A stretch of 46,553 nt of DNA from an uncultured Candidatus Saccharibacteria bacterium (GTDB taxonomy: Bacteria > Patescibacteriota > Minisyncoccia > Phycocordibacterales > UBA9973). Position numbers and translations under genes: made by a program. The stretch spans positions 114,837-161,389 of the forward strand of contig CAYRQJ010000002.1 of NCBI GenBank assembly GCA_964426555.1, in the 5' to 3' direction. Of this stretch, positions 6,165 through 46,350 are shown in pieces; position 1 is the stretch's first letter; each line of letters starts with the position of its first letter. The notes under the pieces are model-generated. The model was given only the letters and a program-made list of their open reading frames with translations. It searched no databases and had not been told where the DNA came from.

Positions 6165-6779
6165 TTAAATGATATTTTTTTCTTCACTTAATCTTTTTCT
6201 TAGTTCATCAAGAGTTTCTTCTCTATATTTCCAGTAAGCAGTACCTTGGACTCCATAATCATACCCAAGAATTTTTTGTGCTGAAGTTGAAAGACTAGTT
6301 TTTTCTCCATTAAACTCAATTGATTTATTATCTAAAACTTTGGCTTTAATATTTTCATCTCTACTAAAAACTAATTCAGTTCCAATAGGAAGATTTACCA
6401 TACCAAAATTAAACTTTTCTCTTATTTCTGAACGGACTTGATCAATTGCTTTTTTATCATCCTTATCCTCTATAAAATCTTTTCTAGGTGTTATGTCTTC
6501 TATTTCTATTAATTTCAAAAGTGATCGTACTCTTTCTGGAGAAATTATAAAAAATTCTCTTTTTGGATTAATCCTATTATCAGCAAACGTTTCATGTATT
6601 TGCTTTTCAGCAAAGAATGAATCTTTTACAGTACAAGCATAGAAACAAGTAAAAGGAAGTGGCACTCCAGTCGCGACACTGAGTTCTTTCATTCTTTGCT
6701 CAATACTGCTATTGGTTCTGCCTATTTTTACATATCCAGGCATTGCTTCGTTTGTTAACACATAGATTATTTCATTCAT
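6165..6779 (-). CDS. T5orf172 / GIY-YIG-superfamily domain protein
   Basis: N-terminus IYVLTNEAMPGYVKIGRTNSSIEQRMKEL is the T5orf172 (MUG113-like) signature. The C-terminal ~90 aa are not recognised. The stop lies only 3 nt from the msrB start. Confidence 0.7.
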   Translation of the reverse strand: MNEIIYVLTNEAMPGYVKIGRTNSSIEQRMKELSVATGVPLPFTCFYACTVKDSFFAEKQIHETFADNRINPKREFFIISPERVRSLLKLIEIEDITPRKDFIEDKDDKKAIDQVRSEIREKFNFGMVNLPIGTELVFSRDENIKAKVLDNKSIEFNGEKTSLSTSAQKILGYDYGVQGTAYWKYREETLDELRKRLSEEKNII

Positions 6780-7146: not shown

Positions 7147-8073
7147 TTATGAGTGCCCTATCTTTGCTTCTGGATATTCTGGGTGAGCTACTTTATATCT
7201 TGCCCAGTTGTGGGCCTCTCTTTTATTTTCTGGTATTCTCCAAATTACATAAGGTTCTTGAAGTTCCAGTCCCATAGTAAAAACCAAAATCTCCTCACAA
7301 AGATTGGATAAATTATTCCAGCCAACATCAACTAATGATAAAATATCTTGATTGTTATATGTTGGGAATATAGGTATTACTTCTCCGTTATCTACAGTAT
7401 GTTTTATTTGTGGAAGTTTATACCCGTTGTGTTCTATATCATCTCTTAATTCTTTATAGTCTCTATACCACCCATCTCTATGAGATTGTATGAATTTATA
7501 TAAGTTTTGAAATCTAGCATCAGCATTACTTAACTTAAATGCTTTCGCTCCTTTTTTAAATTTATTTTCATTATCAGTAAACAAGAAAGACATATTGTAG
7601 CCGAACCACTTATGTTGTAGTCTCAACAGTCCTTCTGTTGCCATTGTGCAACGAATAAAGAAGTCTTTAAAGAACATATTGAGTTCAATGTCGATTGGAT
7701 TATTTATGTTAAGTTGATGCCCTTGGAGAATACCATCATGTTTTTCTTTTATGGCTTTTGTGTGGTCGTGTATGTATTTAAAACAAAATTCTTTTGCAAA
7801 TTTTGCTTCAACTAAATTTTGCAACAAAGAACCATAATCCTCATCGAATTCCCCTCTTTTTTCTCTTGGTACAACAAAATCTCTTATCTCTAGATTTTGA
7901 AACATGAATCTATTGTAGAAATCATCTTCTGGTCCGGCTTTAAGTGGTCCATATAGAACACCAGCTTTTGAATCTTGGTTGTTACTTTTATTTTGTTCGT
8001 CTTTAGACATACAGCATTTTTTATATTTCAATCCGCTTCCGCAAGGACATTTTTCATTTCTATTAATTTTCAT
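7147..8073 (-). CDS. SEC-C motif protein with uncharacterised C-terminal domain
   Basis: N-terminal CPCGSGLKYKKCC (SecA-C-type zinc motif). The remaining ~270 aa are not recognised. Divergent from the LexA-methyltransferase gene. Confidence 0.7.
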   Translation of the reverse strand: MKINRNEKCPCGSGLKYKKCCMSKDEQNKSNNQDSKAGVLYGPLKAGPEDDFYNRFMFQNLEIRDFVVPREKRGEFDEDYGSLLQNLVEAKFAKEFCFKYIHDHTKAIKEKHDGILQGHQLNINNPIDIELNMFFKDFFIRCTMATEGLLRLQHKWFGYNMSFLFTDNENKFKKGAKAFKLSNADARFQNLYKFIQSHRDGWYRDYKELRDDIEHNGYKLPQIKHTVDNGEVIPIFPTYNNQDILSLVDVGWNNLSNLCEEILVFTMGLELQEPYVIWRIPENKREAHNWARYKVAHPEYPEAKIGHS

Positions 8074-8076
8074 AGT

Positions 8077-8087
8077 TGTGGATAACT
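8077..8087. promoter_or_regulatory. DnaA-box-like 11-mer TGTGGATAACT (copy 1 of 3)
   Basis: Contains the perfect DnaA-box 9-mer TGTGGATAA (TTATCCACA on the other strand). Lies in the 80-bp divergent gap 67 nt upstream of the ATG at 8154. A candidate promoter TTTACT(8091-8096)-N18-TATAAT(8115-8120) lies just downstream. Confidence 0.3.
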
Positions 8088-8153
8088 TGCTTTACTTTTC
8101 GGTTTTTGTTCGGTTATAATGTAATTGTAGCAAAAGTAGATTTTTATTGCAAT

Positions 8154-10001
8154 ATGTCAACACTAACAAAAAAACAAAAACAAGTCTTTGATTTTATAAA
8201 CACTTATATAGCCGAAAATGGTATCTCTCCTACTATGGATGAAATTAGAATAAATTTAAAATTAAAAGCAGTTTCTACTATACACGAACATATATTGTCT
8301 TTACAAAAAAAAGGTTTTTTATTTAAAGAAGTAAATTCGACAAGAGGAATTTTACCTAAAAAGGAAATAAAATCTATTATAGAAATTCCAATTCTTGGAA
8401 GAATTAAAGCTGGATATCCTCTTGAAGCAATAGAAGAAAAAGAAGGAACGATTTCTATTATAAATAATAAAATCAATTCACCAAAAGATTATTACGCTCT
8501 TAGGGTAGTTGGAGATTCCATGATAGATGACGGAATTTTTGATGGAGATATTGTGATTATAAAAAAACAGTCAACAGCTGATGATGGACAAACAGTTGTG
8601 GCTATAATTGATGAAAATGAAGCAACTCTAAAAAAAATTTATAGAGAAAAAAATCAATTTAGACTAGAACCAAGAAACCCAAATATGTTGCCTTTTTTTA
8701 GGAAAGAAGTAGAAATTAGAGGTATTGTAATTGAAATTATTAGAAATATTGAAACATCAAATATCTATAATTTAAAAAAATACAACGACTTAAAAAGTTT
8801 TTTTGATAAATTAAATTTCCAAAAAGAACATTTTGTAAATTCCAATGATATTTGTACACCAATGGGATGTGTTGAAGAAATGGTTAATATGATACCTGAA
8901 GATTTCTGGCTAACTAAAGGTTTAAAAATACTTGATCCATGTGCAGGTAATGGTAATTTTCATGCATATATTGCAACAAAAACTAATTTAAATAATTTAT
9001 ACTTCAATGAAATAAATAAAAAAAGAATTAATAATATTAAAAAAATCTTTGGTGATTCTGCAAAGATTACAGATAAGGATTTTTTACTATTTGACGAAAA
9101 AGAAGAATATGATTTAGTTGTAGCGAACCCACCTTATGCTAAATTTACAAATGGAGAAAGAACTGCCAAGAACCATAACTTATCTAGAGATTTTATACTA
9201 AAAGCTCTTAATGTTACAAAAAAAGATGGATATATTTTATTTATTGCGCCAGACAATTGGATGTCTTATGCTGATAATAATAAAATCCCGGAAATTTTAA
9301 GTAAATATCAATTTATTTATTTAAACATACATGGTGCAAAAAAATGGTTTCCTGGAGTTGGATCTTCTTTTACTTGGTTTTTGGTAAAAAAATCCCCAAA
9401 CCTTAAAAAATTTACTATATCTAACCATTATAAAATGCCACAAATTGATCAAGTATTATTAGAAAAAAATACGAAATTTATACCTCTTTATTATTCAAAT
9501 TTAGTTAAATCTATTATAAACAAAACCATAAATTCAGAAAAATTAAAATACAAAATTCAAACATCAAGTAATCTGCATAAATATACAAAAAAAGAATATT
9601 TTTCTAAAACAAAAGATTCAAAATTCAAATACAAAATACACCACACACCAAGTCAAACAATTTGGAGTAAAAGTCCACATATATATCAAAATGGGTGGAA
9701 AGTATTTATTTCTTTAACAAATCAATATAGTACTTTTATTGATGAGTGCGGAATGACACAAAGTATAGCTTTTATAAGATGTTCTTCAAAAAAAGAAGCG
9801 GAGGAAATTTCATTAAAATTAAATAATCCCGTATATTTATTTTTAAATAATATTACTAGATATGGCAATTTTAATAATATTAGAGTTTTGCAAAATTTCC
9901 CAGTGTATACAAATTTTAAATTTACAAAAGAAGAAAAAGATTTGATTAAAAAATTTAATAACCTATATTACAATAAAAATAGAGCGCGCTTATTTAACTA
10001 A
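8154..10001 (+). CDS. LexA repressor (wHTH + S24 autopeptidase) fused to a gamma-class N6-adenine DNA methyltransferase
   Basis: ATG at 8154 (the track start at 8076 is TTG). Residues 1-200 are LexA-like: LTKKQKQVFDFI...GISPTMDEI...HILSLQKKGF, cleavage context LGRIKAGYP (Ala86-Gly87), VVGDSM (Ser122) and EATLKK (Lys160). Residues ~230-615 are MTase-like: motif I ILDPCAGNGNFH and motif IV LVVANPPYA (NPPY codons from 9126). Confidence 0.8.
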   Translation: MSTLTKKQKQVFDFINTYIAENGISPTMDEIRINLKLKAVSTIHEHILSLQKKGFLFKEVNSTRGILPKKEIKSIIEIPILGRIKAGYPLEAIEEKEGTISIINNKINSPKDYYALRVVGDSMIDDGIFDGDIVIIKKQSTADDGQTVVAIIDENEATLKKIYREKNQFRLEPRNPNMLPFFRKEVEIRGIVIEIIRNIETSNIYNLKKYNDLKSFFDKLNFQKEHFVNSNDICTPMGCVEEMVNMIPEDFWLTKGLKILDPCAGNGNFHAYIATKTNLNNLYFNEINKKRINNIKKIFGDSAKITDKDFLLFDEKEEYDLVVANPPYAKFTNGERTAKNHNLSRDFILKALNVTKKDGYILFIAPDNWMSYADNNKIPEILSKYQFIYLNIHGAKKWFPGVGSSFTWFLVKKSPNLKKFTISNHYKMPQIDQVLLEKNTKFIPLYYSNLVKSIINKTINSEKLKYKIQTSSNLHKYTKKEYFSKTKDSKFKYKIHHTPSQTIWSKSPHIYQNGWKVFISLTNQYSTFIDECGMTQSIAFIRCSSKKEAEEISLKLNNPVYLFLNNITRYGNFNNIRVLQNFPVYTNFKFTKEEKDLIKKFNNLYYNKNRARLFN

Positions 10002-10495
10002 GACTGTGTACACATTATTGGTAATTTTTTTTGTTTTTTAAGTGAAGTTAATAATTTTTTTTCAAATCTTTTTGCTGGTAAGGCTATTATTTCTTCTTCT
10101 CCAAAAACATCCATTTTTATTTCTGGTGGGAAAAAACCATAAACTTTCACAATTTCATCAATTTTTAATAAACTTTGTAGCACAAAATAATTAGTAACAG
10201 AACATGTTCCTTTGTCTCTATAGGCTTTTTTACCACAATTATAAGAGCGAATTCTATCCTTAAATGAAGTTGTGGCGCTACCAATTTTTATTACTTCACC
10301 CTCCAAAACAAAAACATAGAGTATCCCTTTTTTATTAACTAAGCTGGTATTTGAATTTGAAATAATTATTTTTTCTTCTTTTTTGAAAGGTACAATATCA
10401 CATACAAACAAAAAGTGTCCTTTATGACTAAAATCTTTAAAATTCATTTGGTCAACAATATCTTTTTTACTAAGAATTATATCAGTTTTATTCAT
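9998..10495 (-). CDS. small GIY-YIG-like protein, candidate nuclease partner of the methyltransferase
   Basis: 165 aa; KKGILYVFVLEGEVIKIGSATTSFKDRIRSY fits GIY...YIG...R spacing, with a later acidic residue in RFEKKLL. Its stop overlaps the MTase stop (convergent). The function call is tentative. Confidence 0.5.
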   Translation of the reverse strand: MNKTDIILSKKDIVDQMNFKDFSHKGHFLFVCDIVPFKKEEKIIISNSNTSLVNKKGILYVFVLEGEVIKIGSATTSFKDRIRSYNCGKKAYRDKGTCSVTNYFVLQSLLKIDEIVKVYGFFPPEIKMDVFGEEEIIALPAKRFEKKLLTSLKKQKKLPIMCTQS

Positions 10496-10561
10496 GTTAT
10501 TAATCTTTAATTATAATAAACCAATCCTACCACAAAACTAGCCCAATGAGTTAACACCCAA

Positions 10562-11425
10562 TTACTCTACCGGACAGGTATTTTTGCCCATGGCTTGGTA
10601 TACAAAACACCAGCTAAAGACGGCTTGAAATACCACTACACCTGAGACAAAGATTAAAATCATGCTCCATGTTGTAAGCATCGCAATTAATAGCAAAGCT
10701 ATACCCACACCGGCGCGAATTAGGCGACCCCTTTTATTTATATTTCTTTGGCCGGTTATACCTGCGGTATTTTTGCCAAACTTTTTAAATACTAATCGCA
10801 ATACAAAACCAAATATAAATGCCAATACATACATGACCAGTATCATCCCCCAGCCAAATGGAGATTTGATAAAACCTATTGGTGAACTACCAAAAAAATC
10901 TTTTTTTAATTTTGGTATTATGGTTAGTGCATTCATTCCTTCTTTTTGGTCGAAGGCTTCAAGCTGGCCAATGGCTAGTGAATATTTACTGTCATTGTTG
11001 GGGCTGGATACTGTAATTTCATAAATACCGGCAGTAGCGCGGGATTTGTATTCGGGACCCATCCAGTATGTGTCGGCGCCAAAAGGTTCGTAAAATTTGG
11101 TCCAGGTATGTGTGGGACCCGCGAGTGTAGCGAGCGGGCCTGTGTCGCCCACTTTTACAACTGTTGCCGATACGTCTTTCTTTTGCCCAGCAATGTCTGG
11201 CACCAGTACGTTTACATACAAATCAAAATCTTTGTCGGAATTTATAACATACACATCGGGTACGCCAGCAAGCTTTGCATAATAAGCTTTAGAAATTTCG
11301 GGACTGGGCACCTGTGTTAAACGGCTTTCGGTAATGCGTGGCTGGTGAGCCAAAGCAAATACAGGTAATATTAAAATACCAAAAGCGATAATTAGGAATT
11401 TATTTATGTGAGTAATTTTTTTCAT
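10562..11425 (-). CDS. exported protein with C-terminal DUF2892 (YgaP-like) membrane domain
   Basis: Signal peptide MKKITHINKFLIIAFGILILPVFALA. The C-terminus RLIRAGVGIALLLIAMLTTW...FSWCFVYQAMGKNTCP is DUF2892-like. Confidence 0.6.
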   Translation of the reverse strand: MKKITHINKFLIIAFGILILPVFALAHQPRITESRLTQVPSPEISKAYYAKLAGVPDVYVINSDKDFDLYVNVLVPDIAGQKKDVSATVVKVGDTGPLATLAGPTHTWTKFYEPFGADTYWMGPEYKSRATAGIYEITVSSPNNDSKYSLAIGQLEAFDQKEGMNALTIIPKLKKDFFGSSPIGFIKSPFGWGMILVMYVLAFIFGFVLRLVFKKFGKNTAGITGQRNINKRGRLIRAGVGIALLLIAMLTTWSMILIFVSGVVVFQAVFSWCFVYQAMGKNTCPVE

Positions 11426-12587: not shown

Positions 12588-13421
12588 CTAACTTCTAAAA
12601 TCTTTTAATGCTTTACTAATATCGTTACCATTATTTTTTAAAAGCTTTACGGCGTCAGCATAAGAAAGTTTTGTTTTTTCCATAACAGTACGGATTCCAC
12701 GCTGAACCAGCTTGTCGTTACTTAACTTCATATGGGTCATTTTATTGCCTTCTACACGGCCAATTTTTATCATGGCTGTGGTTGTGATCATGTTTAAAAT
12801 TAGCTTTTGAGCTGTTCCTGATTTCATTCGTGTACTACCAGTAATAAATTCTGGACCAACTATAGTTTCCACAGGATAATTTGAATTTTTAGCAACCACA
12901 CTGTTTTTACTACATACAATACAGCCTGTGGTTATGCCCCGCTGCTGGCATTTTTGCAAAGCCCCCAGTACATACGGAGTGCGCCCGCTGGCAGTAATAC
13001 CAATTACAATATCTTTTTTATTAATTTTGTATTTTGTTAAATCTTTAAAACCAGCCGTTAAACTATCTTCAGCTTTTTCTACTGATGTACGAATAGCACC
13101 ATCTCCGCCAGCAATAAGGCCAACTACCATACCATGTGGCACACCGTATGTAGGTGGGCATTCGCTGGCATCAACTATACCCAGTCTACCGCTGGTACCA
13201 GACCCAACATAAAAAATACGCCCGTTGTTTTGCAAAGCTTCCACACATTTTTCCGCAAGCTTTTTTATTTGAGGTAAAGATTTTTTTACTGAGGTAGCTA
13301 CTGTTTGATCTTCTTTATTTATATTAGTTAAAATTTCAATAACACTCATTTTTTCAATGTTGTTATAGTTAGAATCTTTTTCGGTAGATATTTGAGTTAA
13401 ATCAATTTTACTTTTATTCAT
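12588..13421 (-). CDS. murQ: N-acetylmuramic acid 6-phosphate etherase
   Basis: 277 aa SIS-domain protein; GRIFYVGSGTSGRLGIVDASECPPTYGV and GITASGRTPYV are typical of MurQ. Confidence 0.85.
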   Translation of the reverse strand: MNKSKIDLTQISTEKDSNYNNIEKMSVIEILTNINKEDQTVATSVKKSLPQIKKLAEKCVEALQNNGRIFYVGSGTSGRLGIVDASECPPTYGVPHGMVVGLIAGGDGAIRTSVEKAEDSLTAGFKDLTKYKINKKDIVIGITASGRTPYVLGALQKCQQRGITTGCIVCSKNSVVAKNSNYPVETIVGPEFITGSTRMKSGTAQKLILNMITTTAMIKIGRVEGNKMTHMKLSNDKLVQRGIRTVMEKTKLSYADAVKLLKNNGNDISKALKDFRS

Positions 13422-13456: not shown

Positions 13457-13508
13457 AAAAAATAACCCCAATTTCTTAGGGCTATTATGTATAGGTCGGA
13501 CCTATACA

Positions 13509-13519
13509 TGTGGATAACT
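13509..13519. promoter_or_regulatory. DnaA-box-like 11-mer TGTGGATAACT (copy 2 of 3)
   Basis: Identical 11-mer 88 nt upstream of the murQ ATG. Immediately preceded by the hairpin ATGTATAGGTC/GACCTATACAT. Confidence 0.3.
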
Positions 13520-16045: not shown

Positions 16046-16615
16046 TTAAAATTTGCGAATTACAGCACGCACAATAGCGTTGATAAGTAAAAATTGTTTT
16101 GGGTAAATTGGTTTATAATTTTTGTTAGCGGGTTCAAGCCATACCTTGTCACCCTGTTTCTTAAAATATTTCATTGTAAATTCCCCGTCAACATTGGCTA
16201 TAACCATGTCCCCGTCTTTAGCATAGTTTGTTTTTTCTACTATTACCATATCGCCGTCGGCAATGTGGGCTTCTATCATAGAATCTCCATCAACTTCTAA
16301 AATATAAGTATTGTCTTTTTTAGGAGTTAGATAGTCTAATAAATTTAAAGTGTCATTTGCTTCTTCAGCTACGTCTGCTGGGAAACCAGCTTTAATGCTA
16401 CCCAGTAATGGAATATCATTAAAAGATGACTGCGGAACAAGACGACCCAAATGATCTTTAGCAACTATACCCATTTCTATAAGTTTATCTACAACGCGAG
16501 AAACTGCATTCTTGGATTTAAATCCAAACAAATGCATCATCTCGGTATACGTGGGCATTCTTTTTTCCCTACTATAGAATGTATTTAGTTTTTGTTTATA
16601 ATCTTGATTATCCAT
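16046..16615 (-). CDS. lexA: LexA-like repressor (HTH + S24 autopeptidase), stand-alone
   Basis: 189 aa; LLGSIKAGFPADVAEE (Ala-Gly site), EVDGDSMIEAHI (Ser), EFTMKYFK (Lys). N-terminal wHTH-like region. Confidence 0.8.
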   Translation of the reverse strand: MDNQDYKQKLNTFYSREKRMPTYTEMMHLFGFKSKNAVSRVVDKLIEMGIVAKDHLGRLVPQSSFNDIPLLGSIKAGFPADVAEEANDTLNLLDYLTPKKDNTYILEVDGDSMIEAHIADGDMVIVEKTNYAKDGDMVIANVDGEFTMKYFKKQGDKVWLEPANKNYKPIYPKQFLLINAIVRAVIRKF

Positions 16616-16894: not shown

Positions 16895-16923
16895 ATTATA
16901 TGTGAACGAGCGTACACATGCAA
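16895..16923 (-). promoter_or_regulatory. promoter with embedded LexA (Cheo-type) box
   Basis: Minus strand: TTGCAT (16918-16923), 17 nt, TATAAT (16895-16900). The spacer is the near-palindrome TGTGTACGCTCGTTCACA (16901-18). This is GTAC-N4-GTTC, one mismatch from GAAC-N4-GTTC. Confidence 0.45.
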
Positions 16924-16942: not shown

Positions 16943-16953
16943 TGTGGATAACT
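16943..16953. promoter_or_regulatory. DnaA-box-like 11-mer TGTGGATAACT (copy 3 of 3)
   Basis: Identical 11-mer 88 nt upstream of the ATG at 16855, just upstream of the lexA-operon promoter. Confidence 0.3.
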
Positions 16954-46012: not shown

Positions 46013-46081
46013 AGTATGACACTGCAAACAGAATAGCAAAGAAACGCTGAAAAGTCAAATATAGATTGGAAAAACTTTTTG

Positions 46082-46154
46082 TGGACCATGCCGGACTTGA
46101 ACCGGCCACCTCGCCCATGCCATGGGCGCACTCTACCAGATGAGCTAATGGCCC
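46082..46154 (-). tRNA. tRNA-Ala (anticodon GGC)
   Basis: Minus strand: GGGCCAT-TA-GCTC..GAGT-G-CGCCC-ATGGCAT-GGGCG-AGGTG-GCCGG-TTCAAGT-CCGGC-ATGGTCC-A. G3:U70 identity pair present. No encoded CCA. It overlaps the spurious ORF 46005-46193. Confidence 0.9.
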
Positions 46155-46269: not shown

Positions 46270-46342
46270 GGGCCCTTAGCTTAGTTGGTAGAGCGCCTCA
46301 TTTGCAATGAGGAGGTCAGCGGTTCGAATCCGCTAGGGTCCA
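46270..46342 (+). tRNA. tRNA-Ala (anticodon UGC)
   Basis: GGGCCCT-TA-GCTT..GAGC-G-CCTCA-TTTGCAA-TGAGG-AGGTC-AGCGG-TTCGAAT-CCGCT-AGGGTCC-A. G3:U70 present. Confidence 0.9.
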
Positions 46343-46350
46343 CAGTCGTT

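Follow-up and report, generated by a model that had tools for sequence, protein, structure and literature searches.

A LexA repressor fused in frame to the methylase of a Hpy188I-type restriction-modification module: a candidate damage-responsive modification enzyme

In the Hpy188I system of Helicobacter pylori the endonuclease R.Hpy188I cuts TCN^GA and its partner M.Hpy188I is a gamma-class N-methylase (PMC2630997), while the active site of the endonuclease is formed by Tyr63, Lys73, Arg84, Tyr88 and Glu149 (PMC3045582). A related restriction-modification (R-M) module is found in a stretch of 46,553 nucleotides from an uncultured Candidatus Saccharibacteria bacterium (GCA_964426555.1, contig CAYRQJ010000002.1, positions 114,837 to 161,389 of the forward strand; this whole stretch is referred to as the window), where a clear homologue of the endonuclease with all catalytic residues adjoins a gamma-class N6-adenine methylase, the methylase part of which is 58-61% identical to methylases beside R.Hpy188I homologues in Helicobacter and Campylobacter relatives (PMC2630997, PMC3045582). 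Unlike the Hpy188I system, however, the methylase of the window carries a LexA of 200 residues at its N-terminus, and the two genes are convergent with overlapping ends instead of R following M. The fused gene, at 8154..10001 on the plus strand, is the subject of this work, and the best explanation of its product is a damage-sensing, self-repressing methylase in which LexA cleavage lifts the repression, a reading that we consider fairly probable on the sequence data.

Methylases that repress their own gene by way of an N-terminal DNA-binding region are known, and SsoII, MspI and EcoRII are further examples of the kind. As in the Ecl18kI type (PMC3874152), the DNA-binding domain of the present protein is found on the same polypeptide as the methylase, and the candidate operator overlaps the methylase promoter. 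Systems of the SsoII/Ecl18kI type however have a short helix-turn-helix (HTH) without a protease on a C5 methylase, and divergent M and R genes that share a control region, whereas the window has a full LexA with cleavage site and Ser-Lys dyad, an N6-adenine methylase and convergent genes; furthermore the LexA design extends to methylases of the alpha, beta, gamma and C5 classes, and the repression should be reversible by damage. Controller-protein (C-protein) systems such as PvuII, AhdI and Esp1396I likewise devote a transcription factor to the timing of M and R, and a split form of the present module (L011, in the order LexA, M, R) resembles their C-M-R arrangement, but C-proteins are small Xre-type HTH proteins with C-boxes that usually activate R and are without a signal-sensing domain. 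In domain order, cleavage site, dyad and spacing the fused LexA is like that of E. coli (Ala84-Gly85, Ser119, Lys156), but unlike a stand-alone LexA of about 200 residues with a multi-gene SOS regulon it is part of a 615-residue enzyme fusion on a mobile element. Type I restriction alleviation and the CapH/CapP and BrxR/CapW WYL regulators are similar in that defence is re-tuned upon host DNA damage, but none of these is known to be a LexA fused to a methylase: in restriction alleviation HsdR is degraded by ClpXP, the metalloprotease CapP cleaves a repressor that is a protein of its own, and regulators of the WYL type respond to a bound ligand. In the present design the parts and the regulatory logic are known ones, but they are joined so as to add a damage input, and the combination recurs widely.

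The fused gene is composed as follows.
8154..10001, plus strand: LexA-methyltransferase fusion gene, 615 residues and a stop, with no internal stop in translation
8154..8345, plus strand: LexA winged HTH, residues 1-64 (PF01726 LexA_DNA_bind, E 4.6e-14)
8388..8732, plus strand: Peptidase S24 domain, residues 79-193 (PF00717, E 2.2e-29)
8409-8414, 8517-8519 and 8631-8633, plus strand: Ala86-Gly87, Ser122 and Lys160 of the S24 part
8766..10001, plus strand: gamma-class N6-adenine DNA methyltransferase, residues ~205-615 (PADLOC MTase_II, 1.8e-163 over 205-612)
8928-8963, plus strand: methylase motif I, L260 D261 P262 C263 .. G265 N266 G267 N268 F269
9126-9137, plus strand: methylase motif IV NPPY, N325 P326 P327 Y328

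An earlier note, made on the letters of the sequence, had described an uninterrupted frame of 615 codons in which a complete LexA with Ala86-Gly87, Ser122 and Lys160 is followed by a gamma-class methyltransferase. Translation of 8154..10001 confirms the frame, and the LexA is confirmed by the NCBIfam equivalog model TIGR00498 (lexA), which matches residues 1-199 with 176.2 bits against a cut-off of 110.95, and by the invariance of Ala-Gly, Ser and Lys in seven orthologous fusions and 47 more distant ones, 54 fusion proteins in all. The methyltransferase is likewise confirmed by the PADLOC profile, by motifs I and IV and by a fold match, and the expected Pfam domains LexA_DNA_bind, Peptidase_S24 and an Eco57I-type methylase are all three found, the last over residues 274-390 (E 4.9e-12). 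Residues 1-198 align end to end with LexA structures of E. coli and Thermotoga (T. maritima), the N-terminal HTH aligns to residues 1-84 of the E. coli structures, and the recognition helix, S41-T-I-H-E-H46, is of the E/Q class. In a confident AlphaFold model of the 615-residue protein (mean predicted local distance difference test score 88, predicted template modelling score 0.76) the first third matches LexA structures and the rest the gamma-class enzymes CamA, M.TaqI and M.BseCI, the C-terminal part of the methylase domain being the target-recognition region. More than 100 stand-alone methylases of about 410 residues are 60-73% identical to the methylase part, and since these and the PADLOC profile align from residue ~205, the linker between LexA and methylase is only about 5-10 residues long; the linker of about 50 residues in the earlier note is wrong. 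As regards the interpretation offered there, every part that can be checked computationally is supported. A longer open reading frame (ORF) starting with TTG at 8076 was rejected, as it would traverse the promoter and as the homologues begin at the ATG.

The gene that opposes the fusion, and its promoter-like site, are found at the following positions.
9998..10495, minus strand: R.Hpy188I homologue, restriction endonuclease of the GIY-YIG type, 165 residues (PDB 3OQG, E 6e-40; PADLOC REase_II, 2.4e-41)
10476..10503, minus strand: promoter-like site of the endonuclease gene, TTAATA-16-TATAAT with TG

What had earlier been called an adjacent nuclease module is hereby established as the gene of a restriction endonuclease homologous to R.Hpy188I, convergent with the fusion gene in such a way that the two stops overlap by 4 base pairs (bp). 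Its residues Y60, K70, R81, Y85 and E145 correspond to the Hpy188I active site and are invariant in 8 homologues. An independent functional link between the two genes comes from the database protein P0058 (588 residues), a single-chain M-R in which a Hpy188I-type methylase carries a R.Hpy188I-like endonuclease at its C-terminus. The length profile of another protein, P0121 (596 residues), is like that of P0058, with the methylase part over residues 13-417. No terminator-like site was found between the M and R genes, no ORF in 8074..10561 encodes a separate small Xre-type C-protein, and upstream of the endonuclease gene neither the operator repeat nor the 9-mer box described below was found in the nine loci searched. 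The module has a G+C content of 0.24-0.27 as against 0.33 in both flanks, and with an R.Hpy188I homologue as the adjoining gene the locus is a mobile low-G+C Type II R-M module. Judged by homology and composition, 8074..10561 is a horizontally acquired two-gene Hpy188I-type Type II R-M module, and its probable target is TCNGA. In the region 8000-10600 the only TCNGA site is at 9534, and none is found near the operator.

Six other protein clusters carry the same four domains (611-639 residues, 62-65% identity over 98-99% of the length), the contigs of these lineages stem from independent ENA, JGI and Logan assemblies, and in each of them a convergent R.Hpy188I homologue is found directly downstream, while the flanking genes all differ. 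A split form is found in a Parcubacteria metagenome-assembled genome (L011), in which a LexA of 196 residues, a stop and 6 bp are followed in the same frame by a methylase of 410 residues and then by the convergent endonuclease gene. In all versions from the candidate phyla radiation (CPR), including L010, L011 and all fused loci, R is convergent with abutting ends, with or without LexA, whereas in the Hpy188I-type loci of Campylobacter, Helicobacter and Arcobacteraceae (L012-L017) R follows M on the same strand, and the methylase is without LexA in the Campylobacter and Helicobacter relatives. An ORF upstream of the stand-alone methylase in L010 was considered as a LexA and rejected, its translation being transposase-like in appearance.

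Upstream of the fused gene, promoter and candidate operator are interlaced.
8091..8120, plus strand: promoter of the fused gene, -35 TTTACT (8091-8096), 18-nucleotide spacer, -10 TATAAT (8115-8120)
8098..8114, plus strand: candidate LexA operator, direct repeat TTCGGT-N5-TTCGGT with an 11-bp period, filling the spacer between -35 and -10

The promoter, with 10 of 12 matches, is the best promoter-like site of the region, and its layout is repeated at homologous loci. A further exact TTCGGT-N5-TTCGGT is not found in the window, and six hits with up to two mismatches all lie inside ORFs; as there is no second promoter in the window with the operator, the fused LexA appears to control only its own promoter within the window. 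The order of box, -35, repeat and -10 is common to most fused loci, but the repeat unit varies (TTTCGGT, TTTCTAT, ATCGGGT, TCGTTCT), and in a subset ATCGAAA repeats directly follow the -10. The repeat is much more frequent than chance would allow: among lexA genes, 30 of 48 fused and 10 of 29 stand-alone ones have a perfect 7-mer repeat at 11-bp period upstream, as against about 0.4 in dinucleotide shuffles, none at periods of 9, 10, 12 or 13 and 0.65% in control windows. Furthermore, residue 5 of the S-T-x-H-X-H helix goes along with the unit, E/Q/D with TCGG in 38 of 40 cases, F/Y with TTC[TG]A in 17 of 17 and K with TTCGC in 7 of 8, these being raw counts in which shared ancestry is included. 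Such tracking of the recognition helix by the repeat unit is what one would expect of a repeat that serves LexA as operator throughout this group and that the fused proteins have retained in their own promoters, and the TTCGGT repeat is hence a candidate for the fused LexA's own operator. The earlier proposal that an SOS-type controller replaces the C-protein agrees with both observations, a module without a C-protein and an operator in the promoter that co-varies with the LexA recognition helix.

The alphaproteobacterial LexA box is GTTC-N7-GTTC (PMC8565304), and the candidate operator resembles it in being a direct repeat of the same 11-bp period and in part of its sequence; one copy of the operator, in L008, indeed reads exactly GTTC-N7-GTTC. 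The direct-repeat LexA box of Patescibacteria may already be known from work on the SOS network of this group (Sanchez-Osuna et al. 2017). As a separate observation on the leader, GTCAA(T) is found in the 30 nucleotides that precede the ATG at 23 of the 49 fused loci (background 0.03 per 30 nucleotides; 8124-8153 in the window), where Shine-Dalgarno motifs are rare, with 4 of 49 fused genes as against 13 of 29 for stand-alone lexA. The -35 core TTGAC has GTCAA as its complement, and in the window a promoter-like TTGCAA-17-TACAAT on the minus strand (8152-8124) overlaps the spot, so that a divergent promoter or an atypical leader may lie here.

The fusion is not confined to Hpy188I-type methylases. 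In a profile search over 1.84 billion representative proteins, dozens of proteins of 400-890 residues match the LexA part over their first ~200 residues, and 47 of the fusions found, a lower bound on the number of clusters, were examined. All 47 of these further clusters have both LexA domains with invariant Ala-Gly, Ser and Lys, and their C-terminal parts match the Pfam families N6_N4_Mtase (31), Eco57I (7), D12/Dam (5), N6_Mtase (5) and C5-cytosine methylase (3), such that alpha, beta, gamma and C5 methylases are all represented. A metagenome scan returned 80 lexA loci of this type, about 49 of them fused. Of the complete fused loci, 32 of 36 are followed by a convergent gene, the ends of the two genes overlapping or lying within ~10 bp of each other. 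Among 34 convergent neighbours Pfam assigns many to families of Type II endonucleases, namely Bsp6I (five times), TaqI (four), MvaI/BcnI (two), AlwI, Tsp45I, EcoRV, PabI, BsaWI and HNH. Split forms occur as well, for five of 30 apparently stand-alone lexA genes have a methylase gene directly after them on the same strand.

From these comparisons the LexA modules are seen to be shuffled relative to the methylases. The LexA part of the window's fusion shares 66-73% identity with the LexA parts that are fused to C5 methylases, but no more than 46-55% with the LexA parts of its methylase orthologues, the methylase parts of which are 68-73% identical. Likewise the loci L020 and L026, and again L019 and L021, have nearly the same promoter and LexA modules (81-85% identity) on unrelated methylases, which suggests recent recombination swapping a regulatory cassette between R-M systems. 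Two predicted viral contigs in IMG/VR (L101 and L103) encode beta-class LexA-methylase fusions without the 9-mer box and with ATCGAAA-like repeats just after the -10, and as these are the only two clear fusions among the top viral matches there is no evidence for a mainly phage-borne module. Public records of fusions, mostly assigned to Candidatus Nealsonbacteria or the Patescibacteria group, bear automatic names only ('LexA repressor', 'transcriptional repressor LexA', 'DNA adenine methylase', 'hypothetical protein'), and the literature searched contained no description of a LexA-methylase fusion or of a LexA-controlled R-M system. The remark of the earlier note that it knew of no described system with this architecture stands in so far as no characterisation was found in that literature, but the architecture is not unique, a large class being deposited in databases. 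By domain content and gene order, the fusion of the window is one example of a widespread, uncharacterised design.

A second conserved element of these promoters is a 9-mer that recurs elsewhere in the window.
8077..8087, minus strand: DnaA-box-identical element, AGTTATCCACA on the minus and TGTGGATAACT on the plus strand, 3 nucleotides upstream of the -35
13509-13517: third exact TTATCCACA, intergenic, upstream of the gene 12588..13421 (minus strand)
13488-13508: perfect 10-bp inverted repeat TGTATAGGTC-c-GACCTATACA, directly after the third copy of the 9-mer

The exact 9-mer at 8077-8085 (TGTGGATAA) is the first element upstream of the -35 of the fused gene, and TTATCCACA is the consensus DnaA box. 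Within 150 bp upstream it is found exactly in 35 of 49 fused genes, and in 42 of 49 with one mismatch, but only in 3 of 30 stand-alone lexA genes, the background being 0.016 per 150 bp. It occurs in either orientation, beside the -35 or abutting the operator, with an extended consensus AG-TTATCCACA-g that resembles the strong boxes of the E. coli origin. The window holds three exact copies, all of them intergenic, where ~0.6 would be expected by chance as estimated from base composition. Since the 9-mer is invariant while LexA helices and operators vary, its reader is probably a conserved host protein and not the fusion; a role as half-site of the fused LexA was rejected on the same ground and because the box occurs as a single copy in either orientation. 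This conserved DnaA-box-like element would tie lexA promoters to a second input, probably DnaA, by way of the AGTTATCCACA box beside the -35. With tblastn probes neither dnaA nor recA was found in the window or in the loci probed, and no origin region was found there either.

The stand-alone lexA gene of the window (lexA2) has a promoter of similar order.
16046..16615: second LexA (TIGR00498, 127.5 bits)
16943-16951: box of the promoter of the lexA2 operon, which consists of a conserved ORF of 67-76 residues and lexA2
16901-16918: palindrome of the same promoter
16895-16900: -10 TATAAT of the same promoter

Here the AGTTATCCACA box is followed by a -35, a Cheo-type palindrome (TGTGTACGCTCGTTCACA) and TATAAT, a layout conserved in two orthologous genomes (box at 2206-2214 in L099 and 2207-2215 in L100, the palindrome in L100 being GTGAACGATCGTTCAC). 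The family of the second LexA is very uniform: its members have 188-189 residues, are 70-87% identical across more than 100 clusters and lie on contigs that reach 840 kb, and in two orthologous genomes the gene is followed by repair genes, namely those of a DNA glycosylase, an Ogt-like protein, a PIF1 helicase and a Y-family polymerase. By family and gene neighbourhood the second LexA is the housekeeping SOS repressor of this lineage. That the fused LexA is an accessory copy, as the earlier note had held, is in accord with the conserved housekeeping Patescibacteria family of the second one and the low-G+C island on which the fused one resides.

The course of events that we infer from the sequences runs from operator binding through cleavage, derepression and transcriptional interference to a physiological purpose. 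The LexA part would dimerise via its S24 domain and bind TTCGGT-N5-TTCGGT in its own promoter, such that the methylase would repress its own synthesis, a self-repression that would stand in for the C-protein, or for the HTH at the N-terminus of SsoII-type methylases. RecA-coated single-stranded DNA would arise from DNA damage, to which the endonuclease of the module would itself contribute by cutting at under-methylated sites, and self-restriction is indeed reviewed as an inducer of SOS (PMC3874152). The S24 domain would then cut at Ala86-Gly87 and detach the DNA-binding domain, repression would be lost and methylase synthesis would rise, while the cut product would keep an intact methylase. 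Stronger transcription of the methylase would furthermore interfere with that of the endonuclease and lower its expression, as read-through from the methylase gene should do in view of the convergent overlapping ends and the lack of a terminator-like site between them. The net result would be a damage-sensing negative feedback that favours modification at the expense of restriction, and it would be the analogue, among Type II systems, of restriction alleviation. The main argument for a role of cleavage is the strict retention of Ala-Gly, Ser and Lys in 54 diverged proteins, which speaks for selection on cleavage as well as on dimerisation by the S24 domain.

Several points weigh against this explanation. 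The Hpy188I-type fused loci L001, L009 and partly L002 are without a clear TTCGGT-type repeat, shared ancestry enters the counts of helix and half-site, and recA is neither in the window nor in any fetched locus. TCNGA sites are fewer in the window than expected (44 observed against 96, ratio 0.46), but CTNAG is depleted alike (47 against 107, 0.44), and the depletion of TCNGA is for this reason only weak evidence of specificity. Furthermore, if the S24-methylase fragment were degraded after cleavage, the outcome would be the opposite one, and more methylation during phage-induced DNA damage would weaken defence. As for CTNAG itself, its depletion may stem from another R-M system of different specificity in this genome or from a general avoidance of the CTAG type.

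Among other explanations, the one that survives best is that the module holds an establishment timer only, in which the LexA part is a fused C-protein, the S24 domain serves just for dimerisation and cleavage has no physiological role. Upon entry into a new host the methylase promoter would be fully on and the endonuclease held down by convergent transcription, and only later would the methylase shut itself off and restriction start. An operator inside the promoter, convergent overlapping genes and the precedent of N-terminal-HTH methylases that repress their own gene (PMC3874152) are all in agreement with such a timer, but pure dimerisation would not preserve Ala-Gly, Ser and Lys in 54 fusions the LexA parts of which have diverged to ~45-55% identity, and as the sole explanation the timer is therefore improbable. 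A timer function is however compatible with the damage-sensing methylase and probably operates in addition to it.

It has also to be considered that cleavage triggers suicide, in that methylation would lapse with the destruction of the cleaved S24-methylase fragment, and the endonuclease, being stable, would kill a cell that is damaged or infected by phage, akin to abortive infection or post-segregational killing. Such cleavage would expose degradation signals, as it does in the fragments of E. coli LexA. A suicide function would moreover fit the conserved cleavage machinery, the candidate defence gene PDC-S57 that the module adjoins, and the toxin-antitoxin logic of the system (PMC3874152). 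Cleavage would however also lift repression and should thereby increase the synthesis of full-length, active methylase, and the methylase domain is still whole in the cut product. Furthermore, the sequence does not allow a degron to be identified, and a chromosomal module would incur a high cost if it killed its host whenever SOS is induced, wherefore we regard this explanation, whether as abortive infection or as post-segregational killing, as quite improbable. It is very unlikely that the cell has the fused protein as its main SOS regulator, or that the protein is an epigenetic writer tethered to its operator, with the methylase domain being a secondary addition: although the fused LexA outscores the second one on the equivalog model (176 against 127 bits) and shares 53-58% identity with the housekeeping LexAs of further CPR lineages, it is the second LexA that belongs to the lineage's housekeeping family, with its own Cheo-type operator and repair neighbours in two orthologous genomes, no other promoter in the window has the TTCGGT repeat, the base composition of the module is foreign, and there is no TCNGA near the operator. 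The notion that an assembly chimera or a sequencing frameshift falsely joined two genes, for which one might point to the in-frame stop codon between LexA and methylase in the split L011 version, has a negligible chance of being right, since the same in-frame junction is found in seven lineages from independent assemblies (one fusion cluster, P0006, being read on 11 contigs) and dozens of analogous LexA-methylase fusions exist, and the fusion is thus not an artefact.

Directly to the left of the module two further genes are found, adjacent to each other.
6165..6779, minus strand: T5orf172/MUG113-domain protein, candidate defence gene (PADLOC PDC-S57, E 3.6e-71)
7147..8073, minus strand: protein of 308 residues with an N-terminal SEC-C metal-binding motif as its sole feature

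Together with the R-M module these two genes look, by their annotation, like a small defence island. At the far end of the window lie two divergent tRNA-Ala genes, 46081-46154 on the minus and 46270-46343 on the plus strand, with anticodons GGC and TGC and 115 bp between them.

A broader proposal, about which we are nearly evenly divided with some leaning towards doubt, is that CPR bacteria possess a large regulatory class of Type II R-M systems with a portable cassette of DnaA box, direct-repeat operator and self-cleaving LexA, which would be fused to or placed directly upstream of methylases of all classes with a convergent endonuclease gene opposed, such that the balance of M and R would respond both to RecA-coated single-stranded DNA and to replication status by way of DnaA. 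How R-M systems avoid killing their own host is a long-standing question, the risk being highest when unmethylated sites arise in repair or replication restart, and the known answers are C-proteins, self-repressing methylases and, in Type I systems only, proteolytic restriction alleviation. The LexA-bearing methylase suggests a fourth answer, in which the antidote enzyme itself senses DNA damage and releases its own repression, and that the design has been assembled repeatedly on unrelated methylases argues for a general advantage. If this is true, there would be Type II systems with a built-in sensor of self-restriction, and the fusion would be the first known SOS-type switch physically built into a modification enzyme. 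The relation of recognition-helix residue to half-site would furthermore amount to an operator code for CPR LexA proteins and may offer a handle on gene regulation in these unculturable bacteria.

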